Shown here in pieces: positions 4,497 to 9,788 of a stretch of 64,000 bases of DNA. The DNA comes from Acidobacteriota bacterium (GTDB taxonomy: Bacteria > Acidobacteriota > Thermoanaerobaculia > Thermoanaerobaculales > Sulfomarinibacteraceae), in contig JAJDNM010000029.1 of the NCBI GenBank assembly GCA_022340665.1, forward strand, positions 15,627 through 79,626, written 5' to 3'. Every line of letters begins with the position of its first letter. Within the stretch, counting starts at the first letter, position 1. The notes below the pieces were generated by a model, which saw nothing but the letters and a program-made list of their open reading frames with translations, had not been told where the DNA came from and did not search any database. The position numbers and the translations under genes were made by a program.

Positions 4497-6110
4497 TCAC
4501 GAGTCACCTTCCACCTTCGGACGTTTCAGTCGATAGAGATCCGGGGCGGCGAGCTGCTGCAAAACCCATCCGCTATCGGCAAGGCGGTTCAGCATATCGT
4601 CCGAGACTCTCCATACGAACACATTCTCGTACTCGCGCGGAATCACCGGCATCTCTGGCTCGACGACGATCTGAATGCCCGTCCGATCGCTCGCCGCGTG
4701 GGCGAAAGCCAACGACGTGAACATGCCCATTGGGTCGTCCATGCTGGTAACCACCAGCGGCGACGAGTAGCGATCGACCAATTTCGCAGTTGTGAGCAGG
4801 TCGCGCCCAGAGAATTTGTTCCACCAGGTCTCGGACTGCCGGTAGAAGCTGTTCGAATAGATGCCGCAGCCGAGCACGAACGCCGCCGTCACTGCGGCTC
4901 CGAGGCGAATTGCCCGTTGTTTGTTGGATAGAAGGTAAGCGATCGCGAACGCAGCGCAGAGCTCCAGCGCGAATGTCGTCGGCAGGTGGTACCGACTGAC
5001 CGCCGCCCGCCACCCTCCGGAAGACAGATCGACGACGATCATCGGCAGCCAGCACGAGAGGCCCAGGAGAACCACGAACAGGCGCGCCCGCTGCGGCGCA
5101 AATCTGATCAGCACGGCGACGCTCGCCAGCACGAACAGCAGTACGAAGACGATCAGCACCCGGGAGGAGAATCCCGCGTTCACGATGTTGTCCGGGAGAT
5201 CGACGAAGGTCCTGGCGATGGATCCGGCGACCCGTCGGAGCCAACCCCAGAACGGCACGTCGGTGGCGGCCCACACGACCCAGGGTCGATCCCTGGAATC
5301 GAGGAAGATCGACCACGCCCAACGCGAAAAGAGCAGGGAAACAAGCACGAGGGCAGCCGCGGTCAGCTTGACGACCGACGAAAGGCGGAACTTCTCGCTG
5401 ATGACAGCGAAGAGAAAATGCGCTGCCATAATAAACACTGTCAGCAGGTGGGTGATAAGGGTGAGGCCGAGAGCGCCGGTGTAGAGGATCCACCATAGCC
5501 ACGCCGGCCGGTCTCGTTCCCGCGTGCGTCGTGAGGCGACCAGCAGCAACCAACTCGAGAGGATCACGAGATCAACCCAGAGGATGTACTGCCTGGCCTC
5601 CTGGGCATACACGAAATGCAGCGGCGATACCGCGATCAGGCCGACGGTGATCCAACCCTCGAGGGATCGTCCGAAGAGCTCCCGGCTCAGGAGGAATACG
5701 AGCGGCAGGCCGAGGATGCCGAGAAATGCCGAGAATCCCCTCAGAATGGCCTCCGAGGAGCCGAGCATCTTCACCCAGGCTCGAGCGAGGACGAAATAGA
5801 GAGGCGTTTGTCTCGGGTCCTCCCACACCAGCACGTAGATCGTGTCGACGACCGACCGATCATCCCGGGGGAACTGGTGAACCAGTATCTCGTCCCTGGT
5901 GTGTACCTCGCCATCGAAAACATCCTCGATGATCTCACCCCAGAAACTGCCGGCGATTGCGCGGCCGGTGTGTGTTTCGTCCCACCAGACGACTTTCGAG
6001 CCCAATCCATCGAAGCGGATCCAGCAGCCGAAGGCGGCAAGCAGCAGGGCGACACCACGCACCCAGCGAAGCGTTCGCCGATTGGTGGCAGAGGGCGGAT
6101 CGACGATCAT
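4497..6110 (-). CDS. GT-C fold glycosyltransferase, ArnT/PMT-like (GT39/GT83 family), polytopic membrane protein
   Basis: 537 aa and highly hydrophobic. N-terminal region (WWDETHTG...PLYFVLARAWVKMLG...LFGRS...VSPLHFVYAQEARQYIL) follows the ArnT/PMT loop-1 pattern (DE...PPLyYW...lfG). Last gene of a coupled minus-strand cluster. Confidence 0.75.
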   Translation of the reverse strand: MIVDPPSATNRRTLRWVRGVALLLAAFGCWIRFDGLGSKVVWWDETHTGRAIAGSFWGEIIEDVFDGEVHTRDEILVHQFPRDDRSVVDTIYVLVWEDPRQTPLYFVLARAWVKMLGSSEAILRGFSAFLGILGLPLVFLLSRELFGRSLEGWITVGLIAVSPLHFVYAQEARQYILWVDLVILSSWLLLVASRRTRERDRPAWLWWILYTGALGLTLITHLLTVFIMAAHFLFAVISEKFRLSSVVKLTAAALVLVSLLFSRWAWSIFLDSRDRPWVVWAATDVPFWGWLRRVAGSIARTFVDLPDNIVNAGFSSRVLIVFVLLFVLASVAVLIRFAPQRARLFVVLLGLSCWLPMIVVDLSSGGWRAAVSRYHLPTTFALELCAAFAIAYLLSNKQRAIRLGAAVTAAFVLGCGIYSNSFYRQSETWWNKFSGRDLLTTAKLVDRYSSPLVVTSMDDPMGMFTSLAFAHAASDRTGIQIVVEPEMPVIPREYENVFVWRVSDDMLNRLADSGWVLQQLAAPDLYRLKRPKVEGDS

Positions 6111-6120
6111 GCCGGTCTCT

Positions 6121-7233
6121 TCAGCCTTTGCCGAAGAACTCTGCGATCCTGGTCGTCACCGCCCGCACCTGCTCCCGGGTGATGCCGACGAAAATCGGCA
6201 GAGAGAGGGAGGTCTCCGCCAACTCTTCCGCGATCGGAAAGCTGCCGCTGGCGAAGCCGAGGCCGGCGTAGGCTTGCTGGAGGTGCGGGGGCACCGGGTA
6301 GTGAACCATCGTCTCGATGCCATGCTGCTCGAGATGCTCCCGGAGCTCGTCGCGACGCCGTGTCCGCACCACGTACAGGTGGTAGACGTGGTCGAACCCG
6401 GGGCCGACGAATGGCGGGAGCAGTCCGTCCACGTCCTCGAGGTCTTCCCGGTACCACGCCGCAATCCGCCGCCGCTCCTCGATCCACCGCCCGATGTAAC
6501 GGAGCTTGATGCCAAGGATGCCGGCCTGAAGCTCGTCCAACCGCGAGTTGACGCCGATCAGATGGTGACGGTTCTTCTCGCCCGATCCGTAGTTGCCCAT
6601 CGATCGCACGTGTTCTGCCAGGGCCGGGTCGTCGGTCGTCACCGCACCGGCATCTCCCAGGGCACCGAGGTTTTTCGTCGGGTAGAAGCTTGTCGCGCTG
6701 ATGCGGCCGATGCTGCCGGTCGGCCTGCCGCTACAAACGGCTCCCTGCGCCTGCGCGTTGTCCTCGACCACGACGAACCGGTGCCGATCAGCGACCTCGG
6801 AAACGGCATTCATATCGCAGGGTTGGCCGTAGAGATGTACCGGGACAACGGCCCTGGTTCGGTCGGTGACGGCCTCCTCGATGCGTGTGGGGTCGATGTT
6901 GAAGGTCCGCGGATCGGGCTCCACCGGGATCACGACGGCGCCGGTGCGTGACACGGCCATCCAGGTCGCGATGTAGGTGTTCGAGGGTACGATGACTTCA
7001 TCACCCTCGCCAATCCCGAGCGCCTCGAGGGCCAGGTAGAGGGCGTCGAGGCCATTCGCCACTCCAACGCAGTATCGGGTTCCGCTCGAGCGGGCGTAGG
7101 CCTGTTCGAATTCCTCGACCCTCTCCCCCAGGACATACCTCCGCGAGTCGTAAAAGGATTTAAAGAAGGCGCTCACCTCCTCCTCCAGCTGATCGTGGAG
7201 AATATCCAGGGAGTGAAACGGGACCCGCATCAT
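6121..7233 (-). CDS. DegT/DnrJ/EryC1/StrS-family PLP-dependent sugar aminotransferase
   Basis: 370 aa. Motifs GDEVIVPSNTYIAT and SFYPTKNLGALGDAGA (PLP lysine). ATGA overlap with the upstream GT2 stop. Confidence 0.9.
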   Translation of the reverse strand: MMRVPFHSLDILHDQLEEEVSAFFKSFYDSRRYVLGERVEEFEQAYARSSGTRYCVGVANGLDALYLALEALGIGEGDEVIVPSNTYIATWMAVSRTGAVVIPVEPDPRTFNIDPTRIEEAVTDRTRAVVPVHLYGQPCDMNAVSEVADRHRFVVVEDNAQAQGAVCSGRPTGSIGRISATSFYPTKNLGALGDAGAVTTDDPALAEHVRSMGNYGSGEKNRHHLIGVNSRLDELQAGILGIKLRYIGRWIEERRRIAAWYREDLEDVDGLLPPFVGPGFDHVYHLYVVRTRRRDELREHLEQHGIETMVHYPVPPHLQQAYAGLGFASGSFPIAEELAETSLSLPIFVGITREQVRAVTTRIAEFFGKG

Positions 7234-8641: not shown

Positions 8642-9072
8642 TACACCGGTTCCGACTGGCTTCGCAATGAACGGAACTCCTCGAGGCTCCGAATATAGTC
8701 GTTGGGCAGATATTCCTCTGATTCGAATGCGAGCTGCACCGCCCCTTCGGTGTACTTCATCGTGCGCCAGCACATTCGAGGTAGGAAAAGGCCGACCTCC
8801 GGCCGGTCGAGCAGAAAGTCTTCCAACCGGCCGGATACCATCTCGGTTGCGACCTCGATTCTCCCGCTCACCGCCAGCAGCAAGGTCTGGGTTTGGCGGT
8901 GTGCGTGGTGCCCTCGTGTCACGTCGGGAGGAGTGCCGCAGGTCCAGAATACCCGCCGCACGCGGAAGGGAATATCGTTCGTCAGCTCCGCCAGGGTGAG
9001 GACTCCAGTCGACGAGTTTCCGAACGAGGCGAACTCGATGAGACGGGGTGTTGTCGATTGGTTGACCGACAT
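8641..9072 (-). CDS. WxcM/FdtA-like cupin domain protein (dTDP-4-keto-6-deoxyhexose 3,4-ketoisomerase family)
   Basis: 143 aa. RVFWTCGTPPDVTRGHHAHRQTQTLLLAVSGRIEV matches the FdtA/QdtA cupin His motif. Start ATG 9072 overlapping the upstream stop (TGATG). Confidence 0.75.
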   Translation of the reverse strand: MSVNQSTTPRLIEFASFGNSSTGVLTLAELTNDIPFRVRRVFWTCGTPPDVTRGHHAHRQTQTLLLAVSGRIEVATEMVSGRLEDFLLDRPEVGLFLPRMCWRTMKYTEGAVQLAFESEEYLPNDYIRSLEEFRSLRSQSEPV

Positions 9073-9788
9073 CAGCGGCCCCGGACCACTCGGGCGGGCA
9101 CACCGTAGGCCACCACCCCGGGAGGCACATCCTTCGTCACTACCGACCCGGCTCCGATAACGCTGTTGCGACCGATCGTCACGCTGTCCACGATCGAGGC
9201 ACCAATGCCGACCGTCACACCGCGTTCGAGCCGGCACACTCCGGCCACCTGGCACCCCGGGTTGAGTGTCACGAAGTCCCCGAGTGCGGTGTGGTGCCCG
9301 ACGCTGGCATTGCGGTTGACCACGACAAAATCGCCGAGCTCGGCGTGTGCCGCGACGGTCGCACCGGGACCGACGTGGACCCCGTGTCCGAGTCGCATCT
9401 CGGTCGGCAGGTTGGCCCGCGGGTGGATAGCGTTTTCGTAATCCTCCGCGTCGATGCCGAAACGCTCGAGAAAGAACTCTGCGATCGTCTCCCTCGCCCT
9501 GCCGATCGAGCCGATGAGAAGCCCGGCATCGGGGTGCCGTTGCCAGTCCTCATGCCAGACCTCTTGGGTCGAGACACCGTCCGTCTCGTATCCGTACGCG
9601 AGCGAGTGGTTTTCCTCCGGCGGGATGTTGCTGACGATGTCCACCACAACCGGGCGGTCGCTCGCCTCCCTCTGCCTGAGGAGATCGAGCAGGATCGCAA
9701 CCGCGTGATTGCTCTGTCCGAGAATCTGGTATCGAATCATCGGCACGTCCAGGTCCAATTTTCGATCGCACGAGATTACCATCGCCAC
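9072..9788 (-). CDS. hexapeptide-repeat (LbH) sugar N-acetyltransferase, NeuD/PglD/FdtC family
   Basis: N-terminal Rossmann-like MIRYQILGQSNHAVAILLDLL followed by a left-handed beta-helix (GHGVHVGPGATVAAHAELGDFVVVNRNASVGHHTALGDFVTLNPGCQVAG). Start ambiguous: GTG 9788, ATG 9782 or ATG 9740. Confidence 0.8.
   Translation of the reverse strand: MAMVISCDRKLDLDVPMIRYQILGQSNHAVAILLDLLRQREASDRPVVVDIVSNIPPEENHSLAYGYETDGVSTQEVWHEDWQRHPDAGLLIGSIGRARETIAEFFLERFGIDAEDYENAIHPRANLPTEMRLGHGVHVGPGATVAAHAELGDFVVVNRNASVGHHTALGDFVTLNPGCQVAGVCRLERGVTVGIGASIVDSVTIGRNSVIGAGSVVTKDVPPGVVAYGVPARVVRGR

Follow-up and report, generated by a model that had tools for sequence, protein, structure and literature searches.

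The stretch of DNA analyzed here (contig JAJDNM010000029.1, assembly GCA_022340665.1, from an Acidobacteriota bacterium; 64,000 nucleotides in all, ∼62% G+C, referred to as the window, with all coordinates given as positions in it) carries on its minus strand, at 4497–9740, a cassette of six genes that is probably a self-contained three-component periplasmic glycosylation system with its own nucleotide-sugar branch, a reading to which a probability of roughly 0.65 is assigned. Three of the encoded proteins would produce a 3-acylamido-3,6-dideoxyhexose activated with deoxythymidine diphosphate (dTDP), and the other three, namely a family 2 glycosyltransferase (GT2), a small GtrA-family protein and a membrane glycosyltransferase of the predicted GT-C fold, would deliver this sugar via undecaprenyl phosphate (Und-P) to an acceptor in the periplasm. 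Glycosylation in the periplasm that relies on a GtrB-like Und-P glycosyltransferase together with GtrA and a GT-C enzyme has been described as occurring widely (PMC11127046); three-component systems in general are the subject of Mann & Whitfield (2016), at least as that work is cited in PMC11127046. The genes of the cassette, in the order of transcription, and the divergent gene beside it are as follows.

9072–9740, minus strand: left-handed β-helix (LbH) N-acyltransferase, 222 amino acids (aa), first gene

8641–9072, minus strand: FdtA/QdtA-type cupin 3,4-ketoisomerase, 143 aa, second gene

8240–8641, minus strand: GtrA-family small protein with multiple transmembrane (TM) segments, 133 aa, third gene

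7230–8240, minus strand: GtrB/ArnC-like GT2, 336 aa, fourth gene

6121–7233, minus strand: DegT-family pyridoxal phosphate-dependent aminotransferase, 370 aa, fifth gene

4497–6110, minus strand: membrane glycosyltransferase of predicted GT-C fold, PMT_2 family, 537 aa, last gene

9845–10705, plus strand: BKACE protein (β-keto acid cleavage enzyme, PF05853), divergent from the acyltransferase gene, with ∼104 nt between the two

The open reading frames (ORFs) of the cassette are co-directional and lie head to tail, and the functions given to them in the initial annotation were confirmed: every protein passes the curated Pfam threshold for the family to which it had been assigned (Hexapep, FdtA, GtrA_DPMS_TM, Glycos_transf_2, DegT_DnrJ_EryC1 and PMT_2). 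The ORF of the acyltransferase extends mechanically to a GTG at 9788; the ATG at 9740 was chosen as the start because the resulting 222 aa fit the 219–220 aa of the orthologues. In transcription order, the first four junctions read TGATG (1-nt overlap), TAATG (1 nt), TGATG (1 nt) and ATGA (4 nt), and these overlapping stops and starts argue for a single unit of transcription and translation. Coupling through TGATG or ATGA overlaps had been claimed for all six genes; it holds for these four junctions, one of which is TAATG, whereas the aminotransferase and GT-C genes are separated by a 10-nt gap. Scanning of 4200–10000 for promoters and terminators gave no promoter-like site, and terminator-like hairpins were found only within genes. 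Among the sizeable ORFs of the window, no genes were found for RmlA/RmlB (as had been stated previously), Wzx/Wzy, Wzm/Wzt, WaaL, gmd or further glycan glycosyltransferases. The cassette thus stands alone amid housekeeping and signalling genes, and it does not form part of a plain Wzx/Wzy glycan locus, an origin that the initial annotation had considered as the alternative. In addition, LpxC and three RND pump genes are encoded in the window, which marks the host as a lipid A-containing diderm. The window's GroEL and LpxC are identical in sequence to proteins from an Acidobacteriota metagenome-assembled genome (MCG6948136.1 and MCG6948155.1).

The enzymes of the sugar branch were compared with profile libraries and with proteins of known structure. 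The cupin matches the Pfam family FdtA (PF05523) at 1.7e-31 (109 bits, compared with a cut-off of 23), and its matches in the PDB include the isomerase domain of FdtD (4zu4/4mzu), 7n67, QdtA and FdtA (2pa7). The histidine pair of the HxH motif is retained, with GHHAH in the cupin aligned to GEHAH and GYHSH of FdtD and QdtA. At the two positions that are altered in the Y17R/R97H variant of QdtA (4zu7, compared with the wild-type 4o9e), the cupin has Thr22 and Arg102. These positions reportedly control the stereochemistry of the product, according to work by Thoden and coworkers from 2015, and they are mixed here, with Arg102 being QdtA-like and Thr22 fitting neither type. A galacto product corresponds to 3-amino-3,6-dideoxygalactose (Fuc3N) and a gluco product to 3-amino-3,6-dideoxyglucose (Qui3N). 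The aminotransferase matches DegT_DnrJ_EryC1 at 1.4e-108, and QdtB (3frk, 1.5e-114) is its best match in the PDB, with 2oga second (1.7e-108) and 5u1z fourth (6.5e-94). The latter two are taken to be DesV and WlaRG, respectively, and all three enzymes are presumed to be C-3 aminotransferases. By homology, the DegT protein is therefore predicted to be a QdtB/DesV/WlaRG-like C-3 aminotransferase.

The third enzyme of the branch differs from what had been expected. It matches Hexapep at 1.7e-14 and the NCBIfam model NeuD/PglB/VioB (TIGR03570) at 3.8e-40, where its 137.7 bits lie under the cut-off of 160.8, and its best matches in the PDB are PerB (4ea7, 5e-21), followed by VioB (7txp) and also 4m9c/4m98, which we take to be WeeI and PglB. 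In contrast, QdtC is matched at only 1.4e-9 and the acetyltransferase domain of FdtD at 6e-8. The putative catalytic histidine in VGHHTALG aligns with the catalytic His141 of PerB, the residue that is mutated in 4eaa/4eab (H141N and H141A). Judged from these alignments, the acyltransferase is a member of the PerB/VioB/PglD class and not of the FdtC/QdtC class. Consequently, of the complete FdtA/B/C trio proposed in the initial annotation, the cupin and the DegT protein stand as clear members of the Fdt/Qdt families, whereas the acyltransferase does not, and the term 'acetamido' for the sugar becomes an assumption.

The GT2 and the GtrA protein are candidates for the loading and flipping of the lipid carrier. 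In NCBIfam, the GT2 is matched by PgfS (9e-41) and ArnC (2e-21; 76.5 bits, compared with a cut-off of 529), both of which are under their cut-offs. Furthermore, it aligns over its full length, including the juxtamembrane and TM regions, with GtrB from Synechocystis (5ekp) at 1e-34 and ∼30% identity, followed by ArnC, and a TM scan placed two C-terminal helices at 241–259 and 282–300. The previous assignment as an ArnC/GtrB-type enzyme, as opposed to a cytoplasmic polysaccharide synthase, agrees with the inclusion of both helices in this alignment. The protein falls into a distinct subfamily that numbers no fewer than 870 members at E ≤ 1e-40 and whose representatives in Bacteroidota are still 52–65% identical. 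A tblastn search of plasmids with the GT2 returned only generic GtrB-like matches (≤35% identity), and the patterns of a metagenome scan with the GT2 alignment were generic to GT2 enzymes; among the matches listed, only L090, with a DegT–GT2 gene pair, was informative. The GtrA protein has several hydrophobic segments and matches GtrA_DPMS_TM (PF04138) at 4.8e-12 (46.5 bits, compared with a cut-off of 26.1); its gene overlaps with both neighbours.

For the last protein of the cassette, PMT_2 is the sole Pfam match, neither an ArnT equivalog nor any other NCBIfam model was matched, and a profile search of PDB sequences with its alignment gave no real match. Because no solved relative was detectable by sequence, the fold was taken from prediction. 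An AlphaFold model calculated with a 21-sequence alignment has a mean predicted local distance difference test (pLDDT) score of 90.8 and a predicted template-modelling (pTM) score of 0.90, and its structural neighbours are all GT-C-type membrane proteins. In the same alignment, Asp44-Glu45 (within WWDETHT), which directly follows the first TM helix, is invariant. The model thus combines the GT-C fold with an acidic motif in the predicted first periplasmic loop. A small α/β domain is located at the C-terminus, and neither a MIR domain nor any other domain for the binding of acceptor proteins was detected. With PMT_2 and the GT-C fold, the protein does not fall outside the family that had been expected, and its description as ArnT/PMT-like is appropriate at the level of the superfamily; however, it comes no closer than this, since the structure is equidistant from ArnT, PMT (Pmt4) and STT3. 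Nothing in the modelled fold favours a lipid, a glycan or a protein as the acceptor. The family to which the protein belongs has 799 representatives at E ≤ 1e-30, which are mostly cyanobacterial and ∼30% identical. A scan of a genome collection with the GT-C alignment found cyanobacterial relatives only, with no Fdt, DegT or GtrA genes near any of them, which shows that the wider family has no fixed association with this sugar. At L002/L030 (1000–13400; a cyanobacterial metagenome-assembled genome, MAG), two tandem PMT_2 paralogues are clustered with a GT2, LPG_synthase_TM, Mannosyl_trans2 and DUF2079, forming a cluster of GT-C-type membrane enzymes.

The comparison of related loci showed that the arrangement is no chance juxtaposition. 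An identical order of the six genes was found in three loci, L001, L084 and L170. The GT-C protein is 60% identical to that of the window in L001 and L084 and 32% identical in L170, where the other five proteins are 54–66% identical. Part of the block (GT2–DegT–GT-C) is retained at the end of a contig in L086. In Bacteroidota the genes recur in rearranged form: L089 has GT-C, FdtA, GtrA and GT2; L171 (36% G+C; it encodes a protein of Portibacter lacus) has GT-C, FdtA, GtrA, GT2 and DegT, with the acyltransferase gene on the opposite strand, so that five or six orthologues with 42–54% identity to the window are clustered; and in L172 GT-C and FdtA lie a few kilobases from GT2–DegT. The synteny comparison therefore supports a block that recurs in Acidobacteriota and, reordered, in Bacteroidota. 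Ten loci with members of this GT2 subfamily were inspected. Nine of them contain FdtA and/or DegT, and in the remaining one, L088 from Haliscomenobacter, the GT2 gene is accompanied by an LbH gene only. The GT-C proteins of the Bacteroidota are related to one another (2e-48) and not detectably to the family of the window (hhalign probability 0.4%). The genes for making the donor, loading the carrier and flipping are thus conserved, but the GT-C gene is variable, which marks the GT-C protein as the component that confers specificity and can be exchanged, in parallel to Gtr systems.

Taken together, these profiles, matches to solved structures, the AlphaFold model and the synteny back both halves of the initial proposal, a branch of isomerase, aminotransferase and acyltransferase joined to the logic of GT2, GtrA and GT-C, and the following reaction sequence is proposed. 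RmlA and RmlB, encoded elsewhere, would provide dTDP-4-keto-6-deoxyglucose, which the cupin would isomerize to the 3-keto sugar. The QdtB-like DegT enzyme would then aminate C-3, and the PerB/VioB-class LbH enzyme would N-acylate the 3-amino group, with acetyl as the default and another acyl group as a variant in the case that the neighbouring BKACE protein supplies a special acyl-CoA. On the cytoplasmic face, the GtrB-like GT2 would move the sugar from dTDP to Und-P, GtrA would help the lipid-linked monosaccharide to cross the inner membrane and the GT-C enzyme would pass the sugar to a periplasmic acceptor. The scheme builds on observed family and fold assignments, catalytic motifs, overlaps between genes and synteny across phyla; inferred beyond these are the nucleotide of the donor, the nature of the acyl group, the lipid-linked intermediate, the flipping step and the acceptor.

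Several points weigh against this sequence. The solved members of the acyltransferase class, PerB and VioB, act on 4-amino sugars, as does PglD, and the 3-amino substrate assumed here follows from the partner enzymes only. The rmlA/rmlB genes that the first step needs are missing from the sizeable ORFs of the window. We are not aware of any GtrB/ArnC-family enzyme for which a dTDP-sugar has been demonstrated as the donor. The cassette lies outside a polysaccharide locus, and no acceptor is indicated by conserved neighbours. No biochemical demonstration was found in the literature for the corresponding GT2 of Xanthomonas. Moreover, the flippase activity of GtrA is only proposed in the literature (PMC11127046).

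A further question is whether the two halves of the cassette belong together at all. The dTDP-sugar might instead feed a cytoplasmic glycosyltransferase elsewhere, while GtrA, GT2 and GT-C deliver a common sugar (Glc, GlcNAc or Man). The best NCBIfam and PDB relatives of the GT2 (PgfS and GtrB) indeed use common sugars and, as far as we know, the characterized GtrB/ArnC/DPMS-type enzymes all use uridine diphosphate (UDP) or guanosine diphosphate (GDP) sugars. However, the genes for sugar synthesis and for transfer are interleaved in the cassette with overlapping stops and starts, their linkage is kept through rearrangement across phyla and FdtA and/or DegT accompany the GT2 subfamily in nine of the ten loci. 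Furthermore, wxcN of Xanthomonas (and also wxcL and wxcO in a transposon-sequencing screen) shares its phenotype with the sugar-synthesis genes. Independence of the two halves is consequently improbable.

The Xanthomonas genes bear on novelty as well. The initial annotation had held that the combination of an acetamido-dideoxyhexose branch with lipid-carrier delivery is not a described pathway. This claim was not upheld, since wxcK-L-M-N-O of Xanthomonas has the same five functions, and genetics tie it to O-antigen branches of 3-acetamido-3,6-dideoxygalactose (Fuc3NAc). On this comparison, the concept of the pathway was already known from Xanthomonas and the cassette appears to be a variant of it. 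The contiguous genes of wxc region 3 encode the dTDP-3-amino-3,6-dideoxygalactose transaminase WxcK, the GT2 WxcL, the acetyltransferase/isomerase WxcM, WxcN and WxcO (PMC12573098, PMC2238763). WxcN is a small membrane protein and WxcO an integral membrane protein of 730–750 aa that is hypervariable between strains (PMC4878081, PMC12573098, PMC2238763, PMC13133917). The region is linked to the Fuc3NAc side branches of the rhamnan O-antigen, and mutation of wxcK or wxcN abolishes the FucNAc branches (PMC4878081, PMC12573098, PMC2238763). In a transposon-sequencing screen, all five genes from wxcK to wxcO were needed by a phage that is thought to bind the branches (PMC4878081, PMC12573098, PMC2238763, PMC13133917).

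When compared by described functions, the cassette and wxc region 3 of X. campestris and X. hortorum contain the same contiguous set, and the variable GT-C protein parallels the hypervariable WxcO. The acyltransferase gene directly precedes and overlaps the isomerase gene in the cassette, an order that presumably matches the order of the domains in the fused WxcM; WxcN is likewise presumed to be GtrA-like. The original wxc model of Vorhölter and coworkers, from 2001, is said to have already proposed a GtrA/GtrB-like route. In contrast to Xanthomonas, the acyltransferase and isomerase are separate proteins here, with the acyltransferase being of the PerB/VioB class, and the membrane transferase has 537 aa compared with ∼730–750 aa in WxcO. 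The cassette is also located outside an ABC-transporter/O-antigen locus, with wzm/wzt, glycan glycosyltransferases and rml/gmd absent from the window, is accompanied by a BKACE gene and occurs in Acidobacteriota (and Bacteroidota) instead of Xanthomonas. A literature search for further three-component systems with Fuc3NAc or its gluco counterpart Qui3NAc returned Xanthomonas only.

Other known systems resemble the cassette in part. With GtrA/GtrB/Gtr*, which glucosylates the O-antigens of Shigella and Salmonella, it shares a GT2 with two C-terminal TM helices, GtrA, a variable GT-C protein and a donor that would be a lipid-phosphate-linked monosaccharide. However, the inferred donor of the GT2 is a dTDP-3-acylamido-3,6-dideoxyhexose and not UDP-Glc, the genes for sugar synthesis are included in the operon and the GT2 forms its own subfamily. 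The Arn pathway, which provides lipid A with Ara4N (ArnB, ArnA, ArnC, ArnD, ArnE/F and ArnT), likewise brings together in one operon the tailoring of a nucleotide sugar, by a DegT-family aminotransferase and N-acylation, and its delivery by a GT2 that acts on Und-P, a flippase made of small membrane proteins and a GT-C transferase; ArnC and ArnT are detectable relatives. It differs in that no equivalog match to ArnC or ArnT and no deacylase were found here, that GtrA replaces ArnE/F, which are proteins of the SMR type, and that the substrate would be a dTDP-6-deoxyhexose instead of a UDP-pentose. In the Fdt/Qdt pathways (FdtA/B/C of Aneurinibacillus thermoaerophilus, QdtA/B/C of Thermoanaerobacterium and the bifunctional FdtD/WxcM), of which the cupin and the C-3 aminotransferase are clear members, the third enzyme is of a different type from that found here. 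In the organisms with these pathways, cytoplasmic glycosyltransferases build the product into repeat units linked to undecaprenyl pyrophosphate, and its passage through an Und-P monosaccharide carrier is not known.

The BKACE gene (PF05853, 6e-80, 268.9 bits), which was absent from the gene list of the initial annotation, bears on the identity of the acyl group. It adjoins the acyltransferase gene in the window and in L001, L084 and L170. In L171, where the two genes are on the other strand from the rest of the cassette, BKACE directly precedes the orthologous acyltransferase gene and overlaps with it by 4 nt. BKACE accompanied this acyltransferase in each of the five loci that contain it and was missing from all four loci that do not. 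Its divergence between the window and L171 (50.5% identity) parallels that of the rest of the cassette (GT2, 53.5%; DegT, 47%; acyltransferase, 42%). In addition, three protein searches returned matching values for the longest contig (9975, 20653, 25720, 6172, 5065 and 5353 bp), and these matching numbers indirectly suggest six more contigs in which BKACE is located together with the GT2 or GT-C gene. BKACE is thus a probable seventh member of the module that travels with the cassette across phyla.

As in Kce of lysine fermentation and BKACE15 of Paracoccus, the protein is a TIM-barrel Zn enzyme of the BKACE family. In alignment with 2y7d, it retains the residues at chain positions His52, His54, Ser88, Glu149, Arg232, Glu236 and Asp237, which we take to correspond to His46, His48, Ser82, Glu143, Arg226, Glu230 and Asp231 of Kce, its Zn ligands and catalytic residues. 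It differs from Kce in having an isoleucine in place of the amino-binding glutamate, which is presumably Glu14 and binds the 5-amino group of the substrate, and in its context of glycan modification, a description of which was not found in the literature. Enzymes of this family convert a β-keto acid and acetyl-CoA to acetoacetate and a shortened acyl-CoA (PMC11961710), and O-antigens are known to include Fuc3N and Qui3N acylated with 3-hydroxybutanoyl or formyl (PMC4869667).

Because BKACE travels with the cassette, the N-acyl group may not be acetyl. In this alternative, which concerns the acyl group only, BKACE would produce one particular CoA thioester (for example 3-hydroxybutyryl-, propionyl-, butyryl-, glyceryl- or formyl-CoA) and the LbH enzyme would transfer the acyl group to the 3-amino sugar. 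The adjacency to the acyltransferase gene, the parallel divergence, the distribution over the nine loci, the six further contigs, the intact catalytic residues shared with Kce and the documented chemistry of both the enzyme family and the sugars all point in this direction. However, the subfamily is huge, with at least 120 clusters at ≥68% identity that include Chloroflexi MAGs and 7528 proteins at E ≤ 1e-40, such that the role of BKACE may be in general metabolism with the adjacency being kept for other reasons. Furthermore, no fusion of BKACE with an acyltransferase was found among the BKACE homologues, and four of the five inspected loci are GC-rich and probably from related lineages, leaving the single Bacteroidota contig as the main independent support. 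A literature search found no link of BKACE to glycan synthesis. The special acyl-CoA is therefore a tentative proposal, with acetyl remaining the default. Entries of 472 aa that resembled a BKACE fusion were rejected, since they probably represent an antisense ORF running through the acyltransferase gene and BKACE (177 + 295 aa).

A wider proposal, which combines BKACE-derived acyl-CoA, a dTDP-sugar-using subfamily of GtrB-like enzymes, Und-P loading and interchangeable GT-C enzymes in one seven-gene cassette shared across phyla, is somewhat unlikely to hold in full. If it were true, it would be the first tie of the BKACE family to the synthesis of envelope glycans, the GtrB-like subfamily would be the first user of a dTDP-sugar and both Acidobacteriota and Bacteroidota would possess, in this cassette, a portable 'decorate-anything' module.

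The acceptor is the weakest step of the proposed system. The leading candidate, suggested by the parallel with Xanthomonas and given somewhat less than an even chance, is a polysaccharide that is made elsewhere in the genome, such as an O-antigen or a polymer resembling an exopolysaccharide. In L087 (1–13000), a GT-C relative with 42% identity belongs to a glycan locus with a Wzt_C-type ABC transporter and many sulfotransferase and methyltransferase genes, a hint that polysaccharides exported by ABC transporters are possible acceptors for this GT-C family. Apart from BKACE, the genes flanking the cassette are not conserved; the one downstream encodes a β-propeller protein in the window, YchF in L001 and L084, and in L170 a small hypothetical protein followed by a Tricorn-type protease. 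Glycosylation of secreted or outer-membrane proteins, in the manner of PMT-like O-glycosylation, would be in keeping with PMT_2 as the only Pfam match of the GT-C protein, with the structural closeness of Pmt4 and STT3, which equals that of ArnT, and with two signal-peptide proteins that are convergently encoded at 2116–4283. However, enzymes directed at lipids and glycans, ArnT among them, also fall under PMT_2, the domain at the C-terminus is small with no MIR or similar domain detected, and the 42%-identical relative belongs to a Wzt-type polysaccharide locus. Moreover, the two secreted proteins, which the initial annotation had put forward as targets, are not syntenic with the cassette in L001, L084 or L170; since they were conserved in no related locus, these particular targets were rejected as unsupported, and a protein acceptor in general is considered unlikely.

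Less likely still is a modification of lipid A or of the lipopolysaccharide core similar to Arn, Flm or Lgm, for which the diderm host would offer the acceptor. The GT-C protein has no NCBIfam match, and neither ArnT nor ArnC was matched as an equivalog, the ArnC score lying far below its cut-off. A deacylase of the ArnD/NaxD/LgmC type is absent from the six genes and their immediate neighbours, which argues against a cationic lipid A modification of this type, and an N-acylated neutral sugar would not bring the change in charge that is typical of such systems.

The ORFs of the two secreted proteins (2020–3171 and 3162–4283, plus strand) are in different frames, overlap by 10 nt and converge on the cassette. 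In both, a hydrophobic segment resembling a signal peptide follows an internal methionine, and the likely starts are near 2116 and 3258, respectively; the second ORF gave only weak β-propeller or NHL matches.

Three-component lipid-carrier glycosylation is a general route to the diversification of surfaces after export, which affects phage receptors, serotypes and immune recognition. The cassette suggests that a rare 3-acylamido-3,6-dideoxyhexose can be delivered by this route in phyla for which almost no envelope biochemistry exists; Acidobacteriota are abundant in soil, and the examples from Bacteroidota are Saprospiraceae-like. Of greatest interest are the presumed specificity of the GT2 subfamily for dTDP-sugars, the use of which the genetics of Xanthomonas imply for a GtrB-type enzyme, and the possible BKACE-dependent acyl group. 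The cassette would provide a compact test system for the use of dTDP-sugars by GtrB-type enzymes, the role of GtrA and the supply of acyl groups to glycans by BKACE, and the cultured carriers Portibacter lacus and Haliscomenobacter hydrossis make these questions testable.

Some further features were observed in the related loci and in the remainder of the window. In L001 (19524–21617), a second PMT/PMT_2 glycosyltransferase gene is located beside a UbiA prenyltransferase gene, ∼8 kb from the cassette; the equivalent place in L084 (14776–15675) holds the UbiA gene only, with no second PMT/PMT_2. The LpxC of the window (51859–53154, minus strand) has an N-terminal receiver domain (Response_reg, 2e-29; LpxC, 8e-85) and belongs to a 90% cluster of 123 members, so that the fusion is conserved in the lineage; it suggests that lipid A synthesis is controlled by phosphorylation. 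A signalling cluster at 13217–16840 encodes a SpoIIE-type phosphatase, two PilZ-domain proteins, one of them with a receiver-like domain, and a hemolysin-III family protein. A protein of 1124 aa (17974–21348, minus strand) combines a TLC/MFS-like transporter region with HEAT repeats and a C-terminal cyclic-nucleotide-binding domain, and a 949-aa fusion (39821–42670, plus strand) contains DHH/DHHA1, CBS and the head domain of poly(A) polymerase/CCA-adding enzymes. Two γ-glutamyltranspeptidase paralogues are encoded in tandem at 33312–35138 and 35092–36963 (plus strand), and a full-length MetH (53308–56895, minus strand) lies beside a second homocysteine S-methyltransferase domain that is fused to MTHFR (57144–59153, minus strand).

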